From the NCBI GenBank assembly GCA_030694465.1, contig JAUXYJ010000103.1:27057-91056 (forward strand): 64,000 nt of DNA, read 5' to 3'. Source of the stretch: Deltaproteobacteria bacterium. GTDB lineage: Bacteria; Myxococcota_A; Polyangia; Polyangiales; Ga0077539. The translations under genes were made by a program, and so were the position numbers. The notes under the pieces are model-generated. The model did not search any database. It was not told where the DNA came from and worked only from the letters and a program-made list of their open reading frames with translations. Positions 20,029-28,599 of this stretch are shown here, piece after piece; the first letter of the stretch is position 1; every line of letters begins with the position of its first letter.

Positions 20029-21072
20029 CTAGAGCCATCCCTGTGCGCGATACCATTGGGCCATGTCCGCGATGGACTCTCGCGCAGGCCGGGTCTTGTA
20101 GCCCAGCACACGCTTGGCTTTCTCAGACGAAATCTCGACGCGGAGCACAGACTGCATGGCCATCTCTTCAGAGATCATCGGGACAGTGCCACGCATCGAC
20201 GCGACGCGATCGAGTACGCGACCGAGGCTGATCATCACAGAGGCAGGGAGCGCCACGCGAGGAGCACGACCGCCCGTAACCGCTGCGATTTCGCTCATTA
20301 AGTCACGCACCGTGAAGAGCTCTCCAGAGAGCGCATAGCGATGTCCTCGCTCGCCCAAGAGCGCCGCGCGGAGGTGACCGTCCGCGACGTCGCGCACATC
20401 GCACACAGTGCGCGTCCCACGAGTCGTGAAATTGCCTGCAAATTGCTTGGTCGCCAAGAACAACGGCAGCAGGTTCTTCTTCCAGTCGCCGGGCCCAAAG
20501 ATCGCTGTGGGGTGAGTGATCACGGCGTCAAAGCCGCGCTCGACCGCTGCGAGCACTTCGCATTCGGCTAGGTATTTCGTTGGCGGATACACCCACCCGA
20601 GCCCATCAAAGTTGTAGGCGCTCTCTTCGTTGACCGGCCTCACAGGCCCCGAGGTCGCGTCCAAGGGCTTGCCCAGCGTTGATCCGCTTGAGGTAAACAC
20701 CATGCGCTTGACCTTTGCGTGCACGCTCCGCTCGACCAAAAACCGCGTCGCCGCGACGTTGTTTTTGTACGCTTCGTCGTACGCAGCCCTGTACATCCGC
20801 ACGTCTGCGGCCACGTGAAACACATAGTCCACGCCCTCGAGCGCGCCATCAATGGCCTCTTGATCCAAGAGATCTCCGTGCACCGCCACAGCGCCGCGTG
20901 CCTCTAAATCTCCCGGAAATCCCCGGCTCCGCGTAAGCGCACGCACTTCGGCGCCACACGCCAAGAGCGCATCGGCGATGGCCCAGCCGAGAAATCCCGT
21001 CGCACCGGTCACAAAAGTACGCGCGCCTCGGAGCGCCGCGAGATCACCGCTTGTCGCTTGTTTTTCGGTCAT
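20029..21072 (-). CDS. NAD-dependent epimerase/dehydratase family protein (extended SDR)
   Basis: N-terminal Rossmann motif VTGATGFLG, a YxxxK-type active-site region (YPPTKY) and typical length (347 aa). Confidence 0.8.
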   Translation of the reverse strand: MTEKQATSGDLAALRGARTFVTGATGFLGWAIADALLACGAEVRALTRSRGFPGDLEARGAVAVHGDLLDQEAIDGALEGVDYVFHVAADVRMYRAAYDEAYKNNVAATRFLVERSVHAKVKRMVFTSSGSTLGKPLDATSGPVRPVNEESAYNFDGLGWVYPPTKYLAECEVLAAVERGFDAVITHPTAIFGPGDWKKNLLPLFLATKQFAGNFTTRGTRTVCDVRDVADGHLRAALLGERGHRYALSGELFTVRDLMSEIAAVTGGRAPRVALPASVMISLGRVLDRVASMRGTVPMISEEMAMQSVLRVEISSEKAKRVLGYKTRPARESIADMAQWYRAQGWL

Positions 21073-21235
21073 TGCTGCGCTTGGACACTACACCGTCTGC
21101 GCGGCTCACTGCAGAGCAGTTCATGAAGTGCGGTGCCATGCGCTAGACTGCATCCGCGTTGTCTCGTTGATCGCCGCGCTTCGCCGTGGCCGGAGAGTCA
21201 ACCTCGCGATCCCTCTGTTGCTTGGTGTGCACCTC

Positions 21236-22123
21236 ATGAACCGATCCACGCTTGCTTGTGCGCTCTTCTTCTCTGCTCCGCTCTCGGGCTGCCTGCTGCC
21301 GTGGGACACCCTGCGGCCTGACGCAAGCACGACGCAGCCCGATGTGATCGTGGGCGAAGACGCCATGGCGCCAGACATCACGACGGGCCCCGAAGCCTCG
21401 GTCGAAGCCTCGGTCGATGTCTTCGCGAGCGACGCTCAGGACACAACACCCATTCTTGATGCCGGCGACGTCGCCGACGCAGGCTCACCCATGGATGCTG
21501 CGGATGTGCGCGAAGCGGGCGTCGATGTGCAAGAGGCTGGCGTCGATGCGCAAGACAGCGGACCCGACGTGCGCGACGCGGCGGTCGAAGCCGAAGCCGG
21601 CCCCGTGTGCACCCCCGTGCTCGTGGTCAACGAAGTACAATCCCGCGGAACCACCGCGAGCGATGAGTTTATCGAGATCTTCAACGCTGGCACCTGCGCG
21701 GTCAACCTCGACGGCTGGTCGCTCGTGTATTTGTCCTCGAGCGGCAGCGGATCTCCGTCGAGCAAATGGATGGGCACCGCCGCACAGACCCTCGCGCCAG
21801 GGCAGTACGGCGTGGTCGTCTCGGGCAGCGTAGGGACCATCCCCGCGGGCGCGATCACCCTCGCGACGCTGGCCACTGTGGGCATCGCGGACAGCGGCGG
21901 CGTCGCGCTCATGCGCGCTGGGACGCGCGTTGACTCGGTGAGCTTTGGCACCGCGAGCGCAATGGTCTCTGCCACGCATCCCTTCACCGAGAACACTCCG
22001 GCCACGTCGGCCACCGCGGGCACCATTGTGGTCGCGCGCAGCCCCAACGGGCGCGACACGGACAACAACAGCGCAGACTTTATGCTGCGCACCATGGGCA
22101 CACCTGGCGACGCGAACCCCTAG
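21236..22123 (+). CDS. Lipoprotein with acidic repeat linker and C-terminal lamin-tail (LTD) domain
   Basis: Lipobox LSGC. A repetitive DAxDVxEAGVD acidic linker precedes an LTD-like core (VLVVNEVQSRGTTASDEFIEIFNAGTCAVNLDGWSL). The ATG at 21236 avoids a 95-bp overlap with the upstream gene. Confidence 0.55.
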   Translation: MNRSTLACALFFSAPLSGCLLPWDTLRPDASTTQPDVIVGEDAMAPDITTGPEASVEASVDVFASDAQDTTPILDAGDVADAGSPMDAADVREAGVDVQEAGVDAQDSGPDVRDAAVEAEAGPVCTPVLVVNEVQSRGTTASDEFIEIFNAGTCAVNLDGWSLVYLSSSGSGSPSSKWMGTAAQTLAPGQYGVVVSGSVGTIPAGAITLATLATVGIADSGGVALMRAGTRVDSVSFGTASAMVSATHPFTENTPATSATAGTIVVARSPNGRDTDNNSADFMLRTMGTPGDANP

Positions 22124-22937: not shown

Positions 22938-24782
22938 ATGAATGGTGATTCAGCGATGACTAGCGAACTGCACTACAAGTCCAACCTTCGAGACGTCGAG
23001 TTTAACCTCTTCGAGGTGCAAGAGATTCAGCGCGACGTGCTGGGTCGTGGGCCGTTTGCCGAGATGGACGAGGCGACCGCGCGAGAGACCCTGCGCGCGT
23101 ACGAGCTGTTTTGCCGCACAGAGCTCGCCAAGAGCTATGCACAGGCCGACCGCGAGCCGCTGAAGCTCGACGTCGAGACGGGGTCGGTGACTCTCCCCAG
23201 CTGCCTGTCTGAGACCTACCAGCACTGGTACGACCAAGGGTGGAATCTCTTGGGTTTGCCCACGCACATGGGCGGCACGGGCGCGCCGCCATCGATCAAT
23301 TGGGCGGCGTTTGAGTTTGGCGCTGGGGCCAACGCGAACCTGATGTTCTATCTGTTTGGAGCGTTTTTATCGCGCGCGATTGATGAGCTCGCGACGCCGT
23401 CGCAGAAGGCTCGCTACGTGCAAAACATGATCGACCGTCGCTGGGGCGGGACCATGGTCTTGACCGAAGCAGACGCAGGCAGCGATGTAGGTTCTGCCAG
23501 GGCAAAAGCACGGCATTTGCACGATGATGTCTGGGAAATCGAGGGGGTTAAGCGGTTTATTACCAACGGCGATTTCGACACGGTCGAGAACGTCGTGCAC
23601 CTGGTCTTGGCCCGCCCCGAGGGCGCAGGCCCAGGCACCAAGGGGCTGTCGTTATTTATCGTCCCCAAGTTCTGGGTCCACGAAGACGGCTCGCTCGGTG
23701 AGCGCAACGGCGCGTACTGCACCAACATCGAGAAGAAGATGGGGATCAAGGGATCTGCCACGTGCGAGATGACGTTTGGCGAGCGAATTCCCGCGCGGGG
23801 GCTGCTTGTGGGCGAAGTGCACGACGGCATCCGGCAGATGTTTCGCGTGATCGAGCACGCGCGCATGAGCGTCGGGATCAAGTCCATGGCGACGCTCTCA
23901 ACGGGCTACCTCAACGCGCTTGCGTACACCCGCGATCGCGTCCAAGGCGGAGATCTCGCGCAGGCCATGGAGAAGAACTCGCCGCGCGTACGAATCATCG
24001 CGCACCCCGACGTGCGACGGATGCTCATGCAGCAAAAGTCCACGGCCGAAGGACTGCGTGCGCTCGCTCACTTCGCAGCGTCCATTCAAGATCGCATTGA
24101 GCTCGAGGGCGGCGCCAAGGCCCCCAGCGCCAAGCACCTCGATCGGCTCAATGACCTGCTCTTGCCCATGGTGAAGGGCTACAGCTCAGAGAAAGCGTTT
24201 GAGCTCTTGAGCGTGTCTCTGCAGTGTTTTGGCGGCTCGGGCTACACGCAGGACTACCCCATGGAGCAGTACATGCGTGACCAGCGCATTGACTCGCTCT
24301 ACGAGGGCACGACGCACATCCAAGCGTTGGATCTCTTGTTTCGCAAGATCGCCAAGGACAACGGCGCCACGTTGCAGGGTCTGCTCGGCCAAATCCAGGC
24401 CACGCTCGATGGCAACGAGGGCGGCGACGCGCTGGCCAACGAGCGCGCCGCGGTGGCCAAAGCGGTCGCGAACACCCAGGCCATGCTGGGCGCGCTCTTG
24501 GGCAAAATGGGCGAGTCGCTCTACCACGTGGGCCTGCACGGCAACCGCGTGCTCTTTGCGCTGAGCGAGACGGTGATCGGGTGGTTGCTCGTGCGTCACG
24601 CGGCGATCGCGCTCAGCAAGCGTGACGGGGCGCACGAAGACGACAAGCACTTTTACGATGGCAAGGTCGCGAGCGCGCGGTTTTTCTGCGCCGAAGTGCT
24701 GCCCATGCTGCAGTCCTCGCGCAAGATCGTCGAGCAGAGCGTGCTCGATGTGATGACCCTCGATGAGCGCGCGTTTGGCTGA
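22938..24782 (+). CDS. Acyl-CoA dehydrogenase (long, FadE-like with C-terminal extension)
   Basis: ACAD middle-domain motifs (GTMVLTEADAGSDVGS, IEGVKRFITNG) and the C-terminal helical domain (QCFGGSGYTQDYPMEQYMRDQRIDSLYEGT). ATG at 22938 or 22956. Confidence 0.85.
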   Translation: MNGDSAMTSELHYKSNLRDVEFNLFEVQEIQRDVLGRGPFAEMDEATARETLRAYELFCRTELAKSYAQADREPLKLDVETGSVTLPSCLSETYQHWYDQGWNLLGLPTHMGGTGAPPSINWAAFEFGAGANANLMFYLFGAFLSRAIDELATPSQKARYVQNMIDRRWGGTMVLTEADAGSDVGSARAKARHLHDDVWEIEGVKRFITNGDFDTVENVVHLVLARPEGAGPGTKGLSLFIVPKFWVHEDGSLGERNGAYCTNIEKKMGIKGSATCEMTFGERIPARGLLVGEVHDGIRQMFRVIEHARMSVGIKSMATLSTGYLNALAYTRDRVQGGDLAQAMEKNSPRVRIIAHPDVRRMLMQQKSTAEGLRALAHFAASIQDRIELEGGAKAPSAKHLDRLNDLLLPMVKGYSSEKAFELLSVSLQCFGGSGYTQDYPMEQYMRDQRIDSLYEGTTHIQALDLLFRKIAKDNGATLQGLLGQIQATLDGNEGGDALANERAAVAKAVANTQAMLGALLGKMGESLYHVGLHGNRVLFALSETVIGWLLVRHAAIALSKRDGAHEDDKHFYDGKVASARFFCAEVLPMLQSSRKIVEQSVLDVMTLDERAFG

Positions 24783-24829
24783 TCCGGCGACGTCGCCGGG
24801 TTGCTAGGGGGCTAAGAGAGCCAGCCGAC
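24734..24829. repeat. Direct repeat copy 1 (96 bp) flanking the island
   Basis: Identical to 28504-28599. Confidence 0.8.
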
Positions 24830-27092
24830 GAATCGCTGCGTCGATCTCGCCCCGCGCTCGGACAACATCCCAATGAAGGGGCGACAGAATCTGACTCAAT
24901 TCGCTGAGCGCATTCTCTGCCTGCCCGATGGCGACGATCGTGACTGTCTGCTCGACCAACACGAGCGTCGCCGACTCAACCTCGGCACACCGCCAATCAG
25001 GCGCAGTGCGAGGCAGAGAGGTTTTGTACCCTCGAAGGATTTTGGTGAGCTTGCTACGTGCGCTCGAATAGAGCCCGCGTTTGCGATCTACTCTTGCAAG
25101 CTCCAGCAGCGCACGGAGCTTATGGGGATGATAGGGGTTGCGCCGTACATTGTCTTGATCGAGCACACGCTGAAGAGTCTCGACGGCTTCGCCGGTACCA
25201 CCTTGTTCAAGTTGGCAATAGGCAAGGAGAAGGAGAGCTCTCCGAAAGACATGCGGCGACGCGCCATCTTCGGCCATGTACACAGCTGAACTCGAAAGTT
25301 CTTCTGCTTGAGCCAGATCGCGCTGAAGCAGGGCATACATCGCCGCAGTGATCGAAGGCCGAATTTGAATCCGTGTATCTTGGCCGATCGATGCTCCGAA
25401 CTGTTGTCGAAGTTCGGTCAAACGCTCTAGTTCTTGCGACGTCAAGAAGCCTGAACGCAAGATAGCATATTCAAGTTCAATAGAAGTGAAGTCGCGATCA
25501 GGCTCTGCATGTGCTACTATAAAATATGGATAGTCCGGAGAATGACAGGGCGGACGCTGTGTGAGTTTATTCCTAGTCACTTCTATTAGACTCTCTACTT
25601 CACTAAACTCTCCACGAATCGAATGGATTTCGATCAACAACATATCCAAGTCGTGAGTCTCAATCATCCCGCGAAGCTGAGCGCTAACTTCAGTCTCAAC
25701 CTTTAGCGCTGCATTGATCTTGCCAGCCTCGATAAGAGAGCCAATCCGCCTAAAAAATTTGAGAAATTCTTTAGGCTCTGACCCCGACATGTCCGACTCC
25801 AAATACTGACCGAAGTGATCGCTTCCATGCAGAGTGGTCGCAGTCTCCAAATCACCGCTCAACATGGCGTAGTAGGCGTGAAAATATTTGCTCCATTCGC
25901 CAGCACTAAATTCTGTAGCCAACCTCAGTTCAACAGTCGCGGCGAAGTCATCTGTAAGAACAATATCGTTGGGAAATCTGTAGTCAACTCTAACGTCTCC
26001 TAGTCTCTCGACCACCACACGGCGAGCCAACAGAGAACTGACAGAAGGTCCTCCGACGGTCCAACTCCTCAGTTCCTTAAGCCGCGCATTCTGAATCTTT
26101 GCCCACTCGGGCTCGCGAGAGCGAGAACGTGTCCATGCATTCCAGCCCTCTTGCGGCAAGGAATCCCAAGTTACCTGGTGACTCCGATCCAGACTGCACC
26201 AGGACGCAAGAGGATCTTCGCTGTTAGCGATTCTTAGCCAGTTCATTTCAGACGGCAGTTCTGGCATAGGATCAACCAACTCAAACTCACACAAGCAACT
26301 CGCGAGAAATTCTTTGGTCCGCTGGAGCCTCTGGCGGCCATCTCGGCTTAGTTCGTCTTCAAATGTTAACGGATCAATTTGCGCCGTCCGCACTCTCCAC
26401 CAGCCCACGGTATCGCCGTGAGACTCAGAAACCAGAATCGTGCGCTGATGTTGGTCAGTCGCGGCAAGCGCCCAACGCACGCGCTTCGTGGCGCGATCCG
26501 AATCATCACCAATGCCCCGAAAGATCAACCACCGATCCTCTCGTGTGTTGATCACATCCAAAATTTCTTGATAGCTCGACCGTGAAACATCGACTTCTAG
26601 GAAGGCAACTGAACCGACCGTTTCTGTCAGAAGATCGATAACTGATTCCCTTCGATCCCAACGTACACCTGCCGCTCCACTTGTGATGGCAGCCTTCAAA
26701 TTCAGCTGCCAGAAGGCAGGGGTGATTCTTGAGGGAGCATCCACGGTCGTGACTACCCAGTCCAAAGCGTCTCGCATCACTGTTCTGACTTGCGTATAGG
26801 TGTCATCCTCGATCCAGAAGATGACCCGAAGAGCTCGATCGGCAAAGATGGGTCGCTCTATGTTGACAGCTTCGGCTTCGTCCACACGAGGCAAGTAGAT
26901 CACAACGTTCTTTGGATCCGCTTCACGAAGGGTTTGAACCCTTGAAGTCAATGTGACCGAATGACCTGCCTTGATGAGGGATCGGACTAGAATGGTCAAG
27001 GCGCTGTGGTGCGCACCACGGACGCGCAACAAACCCATCCCGCTGTTCGAGGCGAGCCTTCGAAGGATGATCGCGAGCCAATCATCAGACAT
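24804..27092 (-). CDS. Large island protein of unknown function (762 aa) with helical/TPR-like C-terminal region; partner of the KAP-like NTPase
   Basis: Long ORF in AT-richer DNA. Its ATG overlaps the upstream gene's TAA by one base (TAATG on the coding strand). No nuclease or NTPase motif was recognised by eye. The last 9 codons (..RRLALLAP*) are read from repeat copy 1 in a frame different from the OPT gene. Confidence 0.6.
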   Translation of the reverse strand: MSDDWLAIILRRLASNSGMGLLRVRGAHHSALTILVRSLIKAGHSVTLTSRVQTLREADPKNVVIYLPRVDEAEAVNIERPIFADRALRVIFWIEDDTYTQVRTVMRDALDWVVTTVDAPSRITPAFWQLNLKAAITSGAAGVRWDRRESVIDLLTETVGSVAFLEVDVSRSSYQEILDVINTREDRWLIFRGIGDDSDRATKRVRWALAATDQHQRTILVSESHGDTVGWWRVRTAQIDPLTFEDELSRDGRQRLQRTKEFLASCLCEFELVDPMPELPSEMNWLRIANSEDPLASWCSLDRSHQVTWDSLPQEGWNAWTRSRSREPEWAKIQNARLKELRSWTVGGPSVSSLLARRVVVERLGDVRVDYRFPNDIVLTDDFAATVELRLATEFSAGEWSKYFHAYYAMLSGDLETATTLHGSDHFGQYLESDMSGSEPKEFLKFFRRIGSLIEAGKINAALKVETEVSAQLRGMIETHDLDMLLIEIHSIRGEFSEVESLIEVTRNKLTQRPPCHSPDYPYFIVAHAEPDRDFTSIELEYAILRSGFLTSQELERLTELRQQFGASIGQDTRIQIRPSITAAMYALLQRDLAQAEELSSSAVYMAEDGASPHVFRRALLLLAYCQLEQGGTGEAVETLQRVLDQDNVRRNPYHPHKLRALLELARVDRKRGLYSSARSKLTKILRGYKTSLPRTAPDWRCAEVESATLVLVEQTVTIVAIGQAENALSELSQILSPLHWDVVRARGEIDAAIRRLALLAP

Positions 27093-28459
27093 TAAAGTTG
27101 CCGCTGTGATAGCTTACGACTCAACATAGGATGCGGAAAAAACCACTCTGATTCGTTTGGATAGACCATCAGTTTCTGGTCCCGAAGCAAACCTGCCGCC
27201 CGATCACGGTCCAGCAACTCATGCAGAGGGTCGAGCATAATTTTTCCAAGAAGTTCGTAGTCTTCCTTGAAGAGACTCTCCTCGACGTTCTTGCGGTGTG
27301 CTGTCAACACTCGATCGACCAAGTCCTCATCAACAACTTTAACATTGGCGTGATAGGCCTCAGACGCAATCTCGTTGAGTAGCTTCACAAAATCACGTAG
27401 CCTTCCACCAGAGTTGAGTGCCAATCGGTCAAGCAATGAGTCAGGAATCCCACCATTCAAACCTACGGACTTTGCTCTCGTAAGATAGACGTTTCTGAGG
27501 ACATTGATCCCAGTCGAGTTCGCAATAATAGTTGGAGAGATCGTCTTGGGATCAACAACGGGCTCACACAACAATCGATGCACTCTGAAGCCTCGAATGG
27601 CAGCCACTCCCCCGTGACCGTGGGGAGCAAACGGTGCGCAGAGGACAACCGCCGCATCAAGCTTTGCCATCAGGTCTGACTCAACAAAGAGCGTCTTGAT
27701 TCGTTCATCGTTTTGAACTCGGTCTAGACCATCCAGAATGACAACAACCTGCTTGTGCTTGGTGGCAATTACATTGAAGACGCGATTGACCGCTCGGAGC
27801 ATTGTCGTGACCTCTTCGCTCTGCGCCCCTAGTCTTTCCCCATGTTTAAGACCGACCTTCACACCGAGCGTAGCAATCGCTTCAGCAACCTGCGTCCCTA
27901 CGGTCATAACGGTCGCCGCTACAGGAGCCGCGGAGACTGCCATGAGTACAGAGGCTCCATTCGCCAGAGCCTTGGCGAGCGGTAGTAGTCTTAGTGGGGC
28001 AGGATCTTCAGTTCTGGTAGCCTTCTTCCACGCTTGTTCAAGGTCTTCCAGAAGATCATCAGCAACGACTTCGGTACCGAGACTTGACTGAGCATTTGCA
28101 AAAGTTTGAATACCGAGCAGGAATGCAATTTCCCAACTTTCGATCCGATTGATCGCCTCGGCATCCCCAAATACTTTCGTCAACACTCTGTCGATATCCA
28201 TGTAGACAACGAACTTATCTGATAGATCGCGCGCCAGTTTGAGCAGTTCAGTACTCTTGCCCGATCCCATCAGACCACTCAAGAGAATCTTCGGAGGCTG
28301 AACCATTTGGGGAATTCTGAGTTCTCGACGAATTACGTCGTAGGGCGAGTAACTACGCGCAACCACCAACTCAGGCGCAACGGCTCCGGCCTCAACCGCA
28401 CAGACAGCCTGAAAGTTGAGCCAACGCTGCTGTACCGTAATGTCTTCTGCGCCGTTCAT
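27092..28459 (-). CDS. KAP-like P-loop NTPase (Walker A GSGKST, hydrophobic insert, Walker B hhhhDGLD)
   Basis: Walker A ILLSGLMGSGKSTELLKL near residue 60. A hydrophobic stretch of about 40 aa (ASVLMAVSAAPVAATVMTVGTQVAEAIATLGVKVGL) is inserted in the NTPase domain. Walker B QVVVILDGLDRVQNDE sits near residue 250. This layout is characteristic of KAP-family NTPases. Confidence 0.6.
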   Translation of the reverse strand: MNGAEDITVQQRWLNFQAVCAVEAGAVAPELVVARSYSPYDVIRRELRIPQMVQPPKILLSGLMGSGKSTELLKLARDLSDKFVVYMDIDRVLTKVFGDAEAINRIESWEIAFLLGIQTFANAQSSLGTEVVADDLLEDLEQAWKKATRTEDPAPLRLLPLAKALANGASVLMAVSAAPVAATVMTVGTQVAEAIATLGVKVGLKHGERLGAQSEEVTTMLRAVNRVFNVIATKHKQVVVILDGLDRVQNDERIKTLFVESDLMAKLDAAVVLCAPFAPHGHGGVAAIRGFRVHRLLCEPVVDPKTISPTIIANSTGINVLRNVYLTRAKSVGLNGGIPDSLLDRLALNSGGRLRDFVKLLNEIASEAYHANVKVVDEDLVDRVLTAHRKNVEESLFKEDYELLGKIMLDPLHELLDRDRAAGLLRDQKLMVYPNESEWFFPHPMLSRKLSQRQL

Positions 28460-28503
28460 GACGGAGATTAGAAAACACGACGCGCTGAGAGTCCAGCGAA
28501 CAG

Positions 28504-28599
28504 GCAGAGCGTGCTCGATGTGATGACCCTCGATGAGCGCGCGTTTGGCTGATCCGGCGACGTCGCCGGGTTGCTAGGGGGCTAAGAGAGCCAGCCGAC
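28504..28599. repeat. Direct repeat copy 2 (96 bp) flanking the island
   Basis: Identical to 24734-24829. Confidence 0.8.

Follow-up and report, generated by a model that had tools for sequence, protein, structure and literature searches.

The window analysed here, a 64,000-nt stretch of contig JAUXYJ010000103.1 from a metagenome-assembled genome (MAG) that NCBI names 'Deltaproteobacteria bacterium', contains two adjacent minus-strand genes, of which the upstream one (gene 1) encodes a P-loop NTPase and the downstream one (gene 2) a larger partner protein with TPR repeats. With roughly even confidence, we propose that genes 1 and 2 form a split, two-gene STAND-like (NLR-like) ATP-dependent sensor or switch, probably horizontally acquired and probably serving defence or another form of conflict. 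Gene 1 would provide the nucleotide-binding oligomerisation unit, in which an AAA+ domain from the Orc/Cdc6-STAND clade is followed by a lid, where the sensor-2 arginine is located, and by a winged helix. Gene 2 would provide the recognition part, namely its TPR array, together with a conserved N-terminal domain that would dock onto the ATPase. According to this model, the TPRs of the partner would bind a ligand, the N-terminal domain would relay the signal to the ATPase, and the ATPase would bind or hydrolyse ATP and oligomerise. The output would then leave through a variable slot in a helical insert of the ATPase or through fused modules; in the Myxococcota subclade, this slot holds an Ala/Gly-rich hydrophobic hairpin. 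The proposal rests on the fold and motifs of gene 1, on the translational coupling of the two genes, on the recurrence of the pairing at distant loci, and on a protein in which both components are naturally fused.

The ATPase and its coupled partner

An earlier note on this DNA had described an open reading frame at 27,092-28,459 with both Walker motifs, and this reading frame is present on the minus strand with a length of 455 residues. It is a real gene, because it has close relatives (E=4e-105, 43% identity) and because an exhaustive profile search covering 1.84 billion cluster representatives returned 254 representatives at E<=1e-30; a further relaxation to E<=1e-10 gave 1518. Nearly all of the best 150 matches listed are 430-480 residues long and align end to end. 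The family thus comprises at least 254 clusters at 50% identity, and it is concentrated in Myxococcota and filamentous cyanobacteria. No solved structure is related to gene 1 by sequence below E=0.07.

Conservation of the motifs was assessed in an alignment of the nine closest sequences and in a wider family alignment of 108 members. Among the nine, G62, G65, S66, G67, K68, S69 and T70 of Walker A are all invariant, as are S350, G351, G352, R353, R355 and F357 of the lid motif and H443 of the C-terminal PHP motif. Across the 108 sequences, invariance extends to G67 of Walker A, D243 and D246 of Walker B, G352 and R355 of the lid motif, and W439 of the winged helix, with K68, G244, L245 and P442 at least 90% conserved. 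The lid motif, SGGRxRDF, resembles the GDxR sensor 2 of RFC/Cdc6. In STAND NTPases, a conserved winged-helix histidine (MHD-type) contacts ADP, for which H443 would be the candidate in gene 1.

An AlphaFold2 (AF2) model of gene 1, computed from the nine-sequence alignment, has a mean predicted local distance difference test (pLDDT) score of 82 and a predicted template modelling score of 0.83. The N-terminal half of the model contains a helical region, a strand (residues 57-62), the P-loop, a helix (68-78) and a further strand (83-88). Seven helices then occupy residues 89-234 ahead of the Walker B strand (238-243), and these are followed by strands 270-276 and 292-296, a four-helix lid (315-393) and a winged helix (398-455). 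The latter is composed of helices 398-409, 418-426 and 444-454 and strands 430-433 and 439-442, and the YPNxSxW(Y/F)xPHP motif is placed in its wing. The best structural matches of the model are Cdc6/Orc1, TnsC, MuB, CED-4 and plant NLRs, and the tripartite STAND layout of nucleotide-binding, helical and winged-helix domains is present. Two marks of the initiator clade are found together, in that the closest structural neighbours are of the Orc1/Cdc6 type and the lid carries a sensor-2 arginine. As modelled, gene 1 appears to be a minimal nucleotide-binding/lid/winged-helix module with a helical insertion of about 150 residues between strand 2 and Walker B. An ABC/SMC fold with the hydrophobic stretch as a buried core helix, which the earlier note had named among the outcomes that would count against its own assignment, was ruled out, since no such match is among the top structural matches.

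Gene 2 is translationally coupled to gene 1, as the stop codon of the one and the start codon of the other share the sequence TAATG. Its C-terminal region matches TPR_12 (E=3e-7; 31.0 bits against a cut-off of 30.1), and residues 563-749 weakly match FxSxx_TPR. A word-indexed search with the partner recovered no close homologue and found itself alone, which indicates that the partner evolves fast. Its first ~120 residues match proteins encoded directly downstream of distant family ATPases (E=1e-10 and 7e-12). By iterated hidden Markov model (HMM) searches, this N-terminal domain, in which N77, R80 and D108 are invariant, was located directly downstream of the ATPase at 49 of 73 usable loci, and at 18 of 20 in the close subclade. 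Additionally, the partner N-terminal domain and the family ATPase occur in one chain in P0131, a metagenomic protein of 793 residues, which is therefore a Rosetta-stone fusion of the two.

The remainder of the partner is variable. Among 40 partners, TPR arrays occur in the C-termini of 24, AAA_16 in 8, nSTAND1 in 6 and WD40 propellers in 2. The partner of a homologue from a Pseudomonadota MAG (locus L024, 9329-11167) joins the N-terminal domain to a C-terminal CHAT (caspase-like) protease domain, and may be an effector version of the partner. Such variable C-termini (TPR, nSTAND1, AAA_16, WD40 and CHAT) are typical of sensors and effectors and are counted in favour of a split switch. Fusions are also found on the side of the ATPase: ABC-type AAA_21/AAA_15 domains in P0029, P0064, P0100 and P0118, a protein kinase in P0064, and TPRs in the same polypeptide in P0151. 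The gene 1 protein itself ends after the winged helix, with the TPR repeats on the coupled partner instead. The ABC-ATPase and kinase fusions, the presence of an EAD1 adaptor in the slot of P0131 and the taxon distribution are hallmarks of conflict systems. A concentration in Myxococcota and filamentous cyanobacteria is reported for the NTP-dependent conflict systems of multicellular bacteria by Kaur et al. 2020 (PMC7159879), and the gene 1 family matches the systems described there and in PMC8195603 in its phyletic distribution and in its association with EAD1, CHAT and ABC ATPases. Overall, gene 1 is a member of a fairly large, unnamed family of Orc/Cdc6-STAND-like ATPases that have a dedicated and fast-evolving partner.

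The pair is likely to have been acquired, because it lies in a stretch of low guanine-plus-cytosine (GC) content (0.45-0.55, versus about 0.63), because it is carried on a 3674-nt insert between two perfect repeats, and because the partner diverges fast. The earlier note had likewise located gene 1 within an island, and gene 1 is indeed inside the low-GC stretch.

Several observations weigh against the proposed switch. No recognisable effector (nuclease, protease, TIR or pore domain) is present in genes 1 and 2, and the PADLOC-DB v2 HMMs matched neither gene (0 families at E<=1). The insert is not accompanied by an integrase, a transposase or a tRNA, and no homologue on a plasmid or phage was retrieved by tblastn. 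For the partner N-terminal domain, the AAA+-like fold comes from a model with a pLDDT of 63, with Z scores of at most 7.6 and no profile-level support. Moreover, the ATPase of the Microcoleus/Lyngbya branch has no partner, and is found among housekeeping genes and beside a DnaJ-domain gene. The partnerless loci (L058, L062, L063, L067, L071, L073, L080 and L081, from Microcoleus, Capilliphycus and related cyanobacteria) share one conserved gene order, in which shikimate dehydrogenase lies downstream and apcE upstream, and the DnaJ-domain gene is immediately upstream in a related and partly overlapping group (L034, L036, L040, L054, L062 and L065). This arrangement suggests that the ATPase of the Microcoleus-type branch has a different role, possibly in housekeeping, so that a defensive role need not hold for the family at large. 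The loci have no conserved third gene in common, and the neighbours that do recur reflect Microcoleus synteny.

The possibility that the partner N-terminal domain is a diverged copy of the ATPase was also considered and rejected: hhalign found nothing, and a low-confidence likeness of fold is what remains. No ATPase module was detected in the gene 2 partner by hmmsearch --max.

The composition of the partners bears on a second account, which is unlikely: gene 1 may be a regulatory or chaperone-like AAA+ protein of the clamp-loader, ORC or MoxR-like kind that loads, remodels or sets a threshold for its partner, with the output lying elsewhere or being produced by the partner. Cyanobacterial partners have an nSTAND1 NTPase of their own together with WD40 or TPR repeats, which would make the small ATPase an extra component, and one partner has its own CHAT protease. 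Similarly, the partners at L004 (5064-6794), L023 (9230-11239) and L033 (8741-10534) have, after the N-terminal domain, a degenerate paralogue of the ATPase that is encoded upstream, and these paralogues keep their own P-loop and the terminal W-x-P-H-P motif. The low-confidence model of the N-terminal domain, which resembles an AAA+ alpha/beta domain, would allow an RFC/ORC-like hetero-oligomeric ring, and the adjacency of a DnaJ-domain gene in the Microcoleus group would also fit a chaperone-like function. However, gene 2 and most Myxococcota partners have neither an NTPase nor an effector of their own, the fold of the N-terminal domain is uncertain, and no substrate-threading pore-loop motif was identified.

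The variable slot and the KAP label

The helical insert of gene 1 contains the hydrophobic stretch on which the earlier note had based much of its assignment. It had been described as an uninterrupted segment of about 40 residues, but the segment as quoted is 36 residues long (169-204) and contains Q190, E193 and K201. The uncharged run, as determined by script, comprises 29 residues (about residues 165-192), with Pro179 in mid-run. Kyte-Doolittle analysis gave a single 19-residue window (KD19) above 1.6 (1.83 at residue 169), and detected in gene 1 no second hydrophobic span that would return the chain to the cytoplasmic side. As a control, the transmembrane helices of the neighbouring OPT transporter had KD19 values of 1.65-2.5 and crude Hessa sums of -0.6 to +4.9, such that the gene 1 stretch (crude Hessa sum +3.3) falls within the range of the weaker true OPT helices. 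Because the control values overlap, hydrophobicity alone neither proves nor excludes contact with the membrane, and crude hydrophobicity was dropped as a decisive transmembrane test. AlphaFold assigns a pLDDT below 50 to residues 170-194, and of about 34 to the hydrophobic stretch.

Comparative analyses indicate that this part of the protein varies greatly. Across 115 close relatives of full length, the counterpart of residues 150-216 is 54-90 residues long and has many indels. The longest uncharged run has a median length of 24 residues, and in six of these relatives it reaches the 38 uncharged residues that were taken as the minimum for a two-span hairpin. By composition, the uncharged runs among relatives are 28% Ala, 20% Gly and 26% Leu plus Val. 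Those of the Enhygromyxa and Plesiocystis orthologues are 33-41 residues long, rich in Gly and Ala, and have a central GGP or GP. The segment is polar (KD19 -0.2 to 1.2) and 35-61 residues long in cyanobacterial, Chloroflexi, Acidobacteria, Planctomycetes, proteobacterial and Sorangium members, and its hydrophobic form is restricted to the Myxococcota subclade. P0118 has no such segment at all, with profile positions 139 and 217 just 14 residues apart, and P0131 has an EAD1 adaptor (residues 464-548; Pfam E=3e-13) in its place, located between profile positions 163 and 211. The slot is variable and surface-exposed, and the hydrophobic stretch is the content that it has in one clade rather than a hallmark of the family. 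Since the uncharged runs are mostly shorter than 38 residues, most members could not form a two-span hairpin, and with a single span the ATPase domain would have its two halves on opposite sides of the membrane. Therefore, the hydrophobic insert is probably not a transmembrane pair, although it may make a peripheral or re-entrant contact with the membrane.

It is unlikely that the hairpin is itself the effector, in the sense that a soluble ATPase, once activated by its partner, would oligomerise and cluster its hairpins into or through the inner membrane and thereby arrest growth, in a manner resembling the funnel of the plant resistosome or glycine-zipper toxins. The occupation of the same slot by EAD1 in P0131 would mark it as an output position, and the pair is without any other effector domain. 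The Ala-, Gly-, Leu- and Val-rich composition of the runs, the longer runs with a central proline in Enhygromyxa and Plesiocystis, and a hydrophobicity equal to that of weak true transmembrane helices of the same genome point in the same direction. However, the stretch alone matches no Pfam family, including no glycine-zipper or transmembrane family, and both its length and its sequence are poorly conserved. Low-complexity linkers rich in Ala and Gly are often encoded by high-GC genomes, and only the high-GC subclade has the feature. Furthermore, AlphaFold gives no confident helix, and the uncharged run of the gene 1 protein has no GxxxG motif. A more specific form of this idea, in which ATP-dependent oligomerisation triggered by the TPR partner would bundle the slot hairpins into a membrane-perturbing structure, and thus form a bacterial counterpart of the resistosome funnel that is made of an internal ATPase loop and not of an N-terminal domain, is distinctly unlikely; in other members, the same slot carries the Death-like EAD1 adaptor.

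The earlier note had assigned gene 1 to the KAP family and had taken the hydrophobic insert as the hallmark of that family. Gene 1 does encode a P-loop NTPase that scores above the gathering score of 20 for Pfam KAP_NTPase (PF07693; 27.5 bits, E=2.4e-6), but the match is partial (profile positions 23-175 of 293) and is level with that of AAA_16 (28.3 bits; cut-off 32.6). NACHT, the other family to which the note had pointed, reached 20.6 bits (cut-off 26.7) and nSTAND5 15 bits (cut-off 34), and no STAND sequence model (NACHT, NB-ARC, AAA_16 or nSTAND) exceeded its cut-off for gene 1. The best NCBIfam match was NF047389 ('P-loop ATPase, Sll1717 family'; 34.5 bits, E=1.2e-8; cut-off 75). Of the 108 family members, 72 matched AAA_16 (at E<=1e-3), 28 AAA_22, 23 NACHT, 19 nSTAND5 and 8 KAP_NTPase, and the orthologues of the cultured Enhygromyxa salina and Plesiocystis pacifica did not match KAP_NTPase even at E<=1. 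In comparison, PifA of plasmid F, a founding KAP member, scored 148.5 bits over profile positions 2-290, and an hhalign comparison of the 108-member family alignment with PifA gave a probability of 2%, with the P-loop region alone aligned.

That the insert drives the KAP score was rejected by a deletion control. When residues 165-204 were removed, KAP_NTPase still scored 23.7 bits, centred on Walker B, and AAA_16 rose to 30.6 bits. As the score outlives the deletion, it reflects generic similarity of the Walker A and B motifs plus DGLDR. The resemblance of Walker B to the STAND/NACHT clades that the earlier note had remarked on is borne out, although DGLDR resembles both NACHT and KAP, PifA having DDLDR. 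Judged from these profile comparisons, KAP membership appears formally borderline for the gene 1 protein and unsupported for its family, and an insert that is variable, dispensable for the score and confined to a Myxococcota subclade does not qualify as a KAP hallmark.

A KAP NTPase that is anchored in the membrane by transmembrane helices between its Walker motifs and regulates a membrane-associated complex is thus very unlikely. Beyond the score itself, such a protein would be in keeping with the name 'P-loop NTPase fold protein', which the Prokaryotic Genome Annotation Pipeline (PGAP) gives to gene 1 and PifA alike, with a Walker B motif that ends in LDR as in PifA, with the long insertion between the Walker motifs (~150 residues and helical in gene 1, about 146 residues in PifA), and with a KD19 value within the OPT range. 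In addition, a KAP defence protein with a transmembrane helix inside the NTPase domain has been reported (PMC13552941). Nevertheless, the match is insert-independent and shared by few relatives, the family is unrelated to PifA at the profile level, and the KAP-annotated RdrA ranks far below Cdc6, TnsC and NLRs among the structural matches. The short run with its central proline, the splitting of a cytoplasmic domain that a single span would entail, the low pLDDT of the stretch, and the polar, missing or EAD1-replaced segment in other members argue against it as well. A marginal Pfam KAP match combined with a hydrophobic stretch is therefore not diagnostic of a KAP membrane ATPase.

A DNA-bound AAA+ protein of the initiator clade (Orc/Cdc6, TnsC or MuB-like), acting in replication, transposition targeting or transcription control through its winged helix, would share the top structural matches and the AAA+/lid/winged-helix layout of archaeal Orc1/Cdc6, but is very unlikely, as TIGR02928 (orc1/cdc6) gives 15.9 bits against a cut-off of 181.3, no transposase, replication or plasmid genes are nearby, the winged helix is not basic (9 positive and 10 negative residues in 398-455), the partner is a TPR/WD40/STAND-type protein, and STAND proteins belong to this clade and share its fold (Leipe 2004, cited in PMC8195603).

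Genomic setting and insertion footprint

The gene pair is flanked on the left by an acyl-CoA dehydrogenase gene on the plus strand, which ends at 24782, and on the right by the OPT transporter gene (28582..30717, minus strand). The positions of the features of the pair and of the repeats are given in Table 1. The two copies of the 96-nt direct repeat are 100% identical and have a spacing of 3770. Each contains the 3' ends of the acyl-CoA dehydrogenase and OPT genes, which converge, with the 16-nt palindrome CCGGCGACGTCGCCGG between them (24784-24799 and 28554-28569), such that these ends are duplicated on either side of the pair. The last codons and the stop codon of the partner gene lie inside the left copy. 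This footprint suggests a recent insertion. The repeat may be a large target duplication or, the source being a MAG, an assembly loop; the latter would remove the argument for acquisition only. A site without the island was sought in metagenome contigs, among which there was no exact match to the repeat.

Table 1. Features of the gene pair and of the flanking repeats, in window coordinates
Feature	Position	Strand	Remarks
Gene 1, AAA+/STAND-like P-loop NTPase	27092..28459	-	455 aa; predicted alpha/beta domain with ~150-aa helical insert, lid and winged helix
Walker A, residues 62-70, GLMGSGKST	28250..28276	-	conserved in alignments
Walker B, residues 238-247, VVVILDGLDR	27719..27748	-	conserved in alignments
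Ala/Gly/Val-rich hydrophobic hairpin ("slot"), residues 165-204	27848..27967	-	in helical insert, strand 2 to Walker B
Sensor-2-like motif SGGRLRDF, residues 350-357	27389..27412	-	start of lid helix
C-terminal winged helix, residues 398-455, motif YPNxSxW(Y/F)xPHP	27095..27268	-	from AF2 model and conservation
Gene 2, partner	24804..27092	-	762 aa; start overlaps gene 1 stop (TAATG)
Partner N-terminal domain, residues about 5-125, motif LNxxR...W...(A)PDxxxW	26718..27080	-	
Partner C-terminal TPR region, residues about 563-750	24843..25406	-	TPR_12, FxSxx_TPR
Left copy of 96-nt direct repeat	24734..24829	+	acyl-CoA dehydrogenase 3' end, palindrome CCGGCGACGTCGCCGG, copy of OPT 3' end
Right copy of 96-nt direct repeat	28504..28599	+	real OPT 3' end and palindrome; upstream of gene 1

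Upstream of gene 1, a terminator-like hairpin followed by a T-run is present on the minus strand at 28483-28498, about 20 nt from the ATG. No obvious Shine-Dalgarno sequence or sigma-70 promoter was seen between the OPT stop codon and gene 1.

Other genes in the window include an 857-residue protein (30678-33251, plus strand) that matches the Major Vault Protein (MVP) shoulder domain (E=3.8e-23) and Vault_3 repeats (E=8.4e-9), with a weak match to Band_7/SPFH; this bacterial MVP-like gene adjoins the OPT transporter gene and is divergent from it. At 35048-37006 (minus strand), a Ser/Thr protein kinase carries a fused FGE-sulfatase (C-type-lectin-like) domain, and a lamin-tail-domain protein is encoded at 20978-22123 (plus strand); both are typical of Myxococcota. 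PMC8195603 discusses the kinase-FGS architecture as a sensor of conflict systems.

Relation to known systems

Among KAP NTPases (PF07693; PifA, Kidins220/ARMS and EF_KAP), the likeness to gene 1 lies in the Pfam score, the LDR end of Walker B and the long insertion between the Walker motifs. Some KAP proteins have a demonstrated role in defence (PMC13552941), and the association or insertion of two or four transmembrane helices is frequent but not universal in this family, PifA being without them (PMC13001434). NF047389 has a similar model length (454) and is matched by 30 of the 108 family members, but gene 1 scores far below its cut-off and aligns over the part from Walker A to Walker B alone; no literature on Sll1717 was found. 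From Orc1/Cdc6 and from TnsC/MuB, gene 1 differs in having no sequence-level membership and no replication or transposition context, as well as in its acidic-to-neutral winged helix and its TPR partner.

In comparison to the STAND NTPases (NACHT, NB-ARC/AP-ATPase, MalT and Avs/bNACHT), gene 1 passes the cut-off of no STAND Pfam model and is distinguished by repeats that are located on a separate, translationally coupled protein, by the helical insertion of about 150 residues between strand 2 and Walker B, by the AAA+-type sensor-2 motif SGGRxRDF, and by the absence of an N-terminal effector domain. The conflict systems of Kaur, Burroughs, Iyer and Aravind (2020, PMC7159879; 2021, PMC8195603) are alike in the NTPase switch, the repeat sensors, the taxa, the coupling of adjacent genes by EADs and the variable, fast-evolving components. 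The present pair differs from them in that it has no MoxR, vWA, GTPase or caspase core, and term searches of both papers returned no mention of the ATPase family or of the partner N-terminal domain. Similarly, no Pfam, NCBIfam or PADLOC model specific to the two-gene module was matched, and no description of it was found in the literature searched.

If the pairing is functional, genes 1 and 2 would represent an undescribed two-gene NLR-like module, with the switch ATPase and the repeat sensor on two polypeptides that a dedicated docking domain would link. The taxa that are rich in this family, Myxococcota and filamentous cyanobacteria, have multicellular habits, in which immune-like NTPase systems are thought to have diversified. 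The split organisation, together with a slot of exchangeable content (a hydrophobic hairpin, EAD1 or none) and a naturally occurring fusion of the two components, makes the hypothesis testable, and the gene pair offers a route to how STAND-type switches carry a signal from sensor to output.

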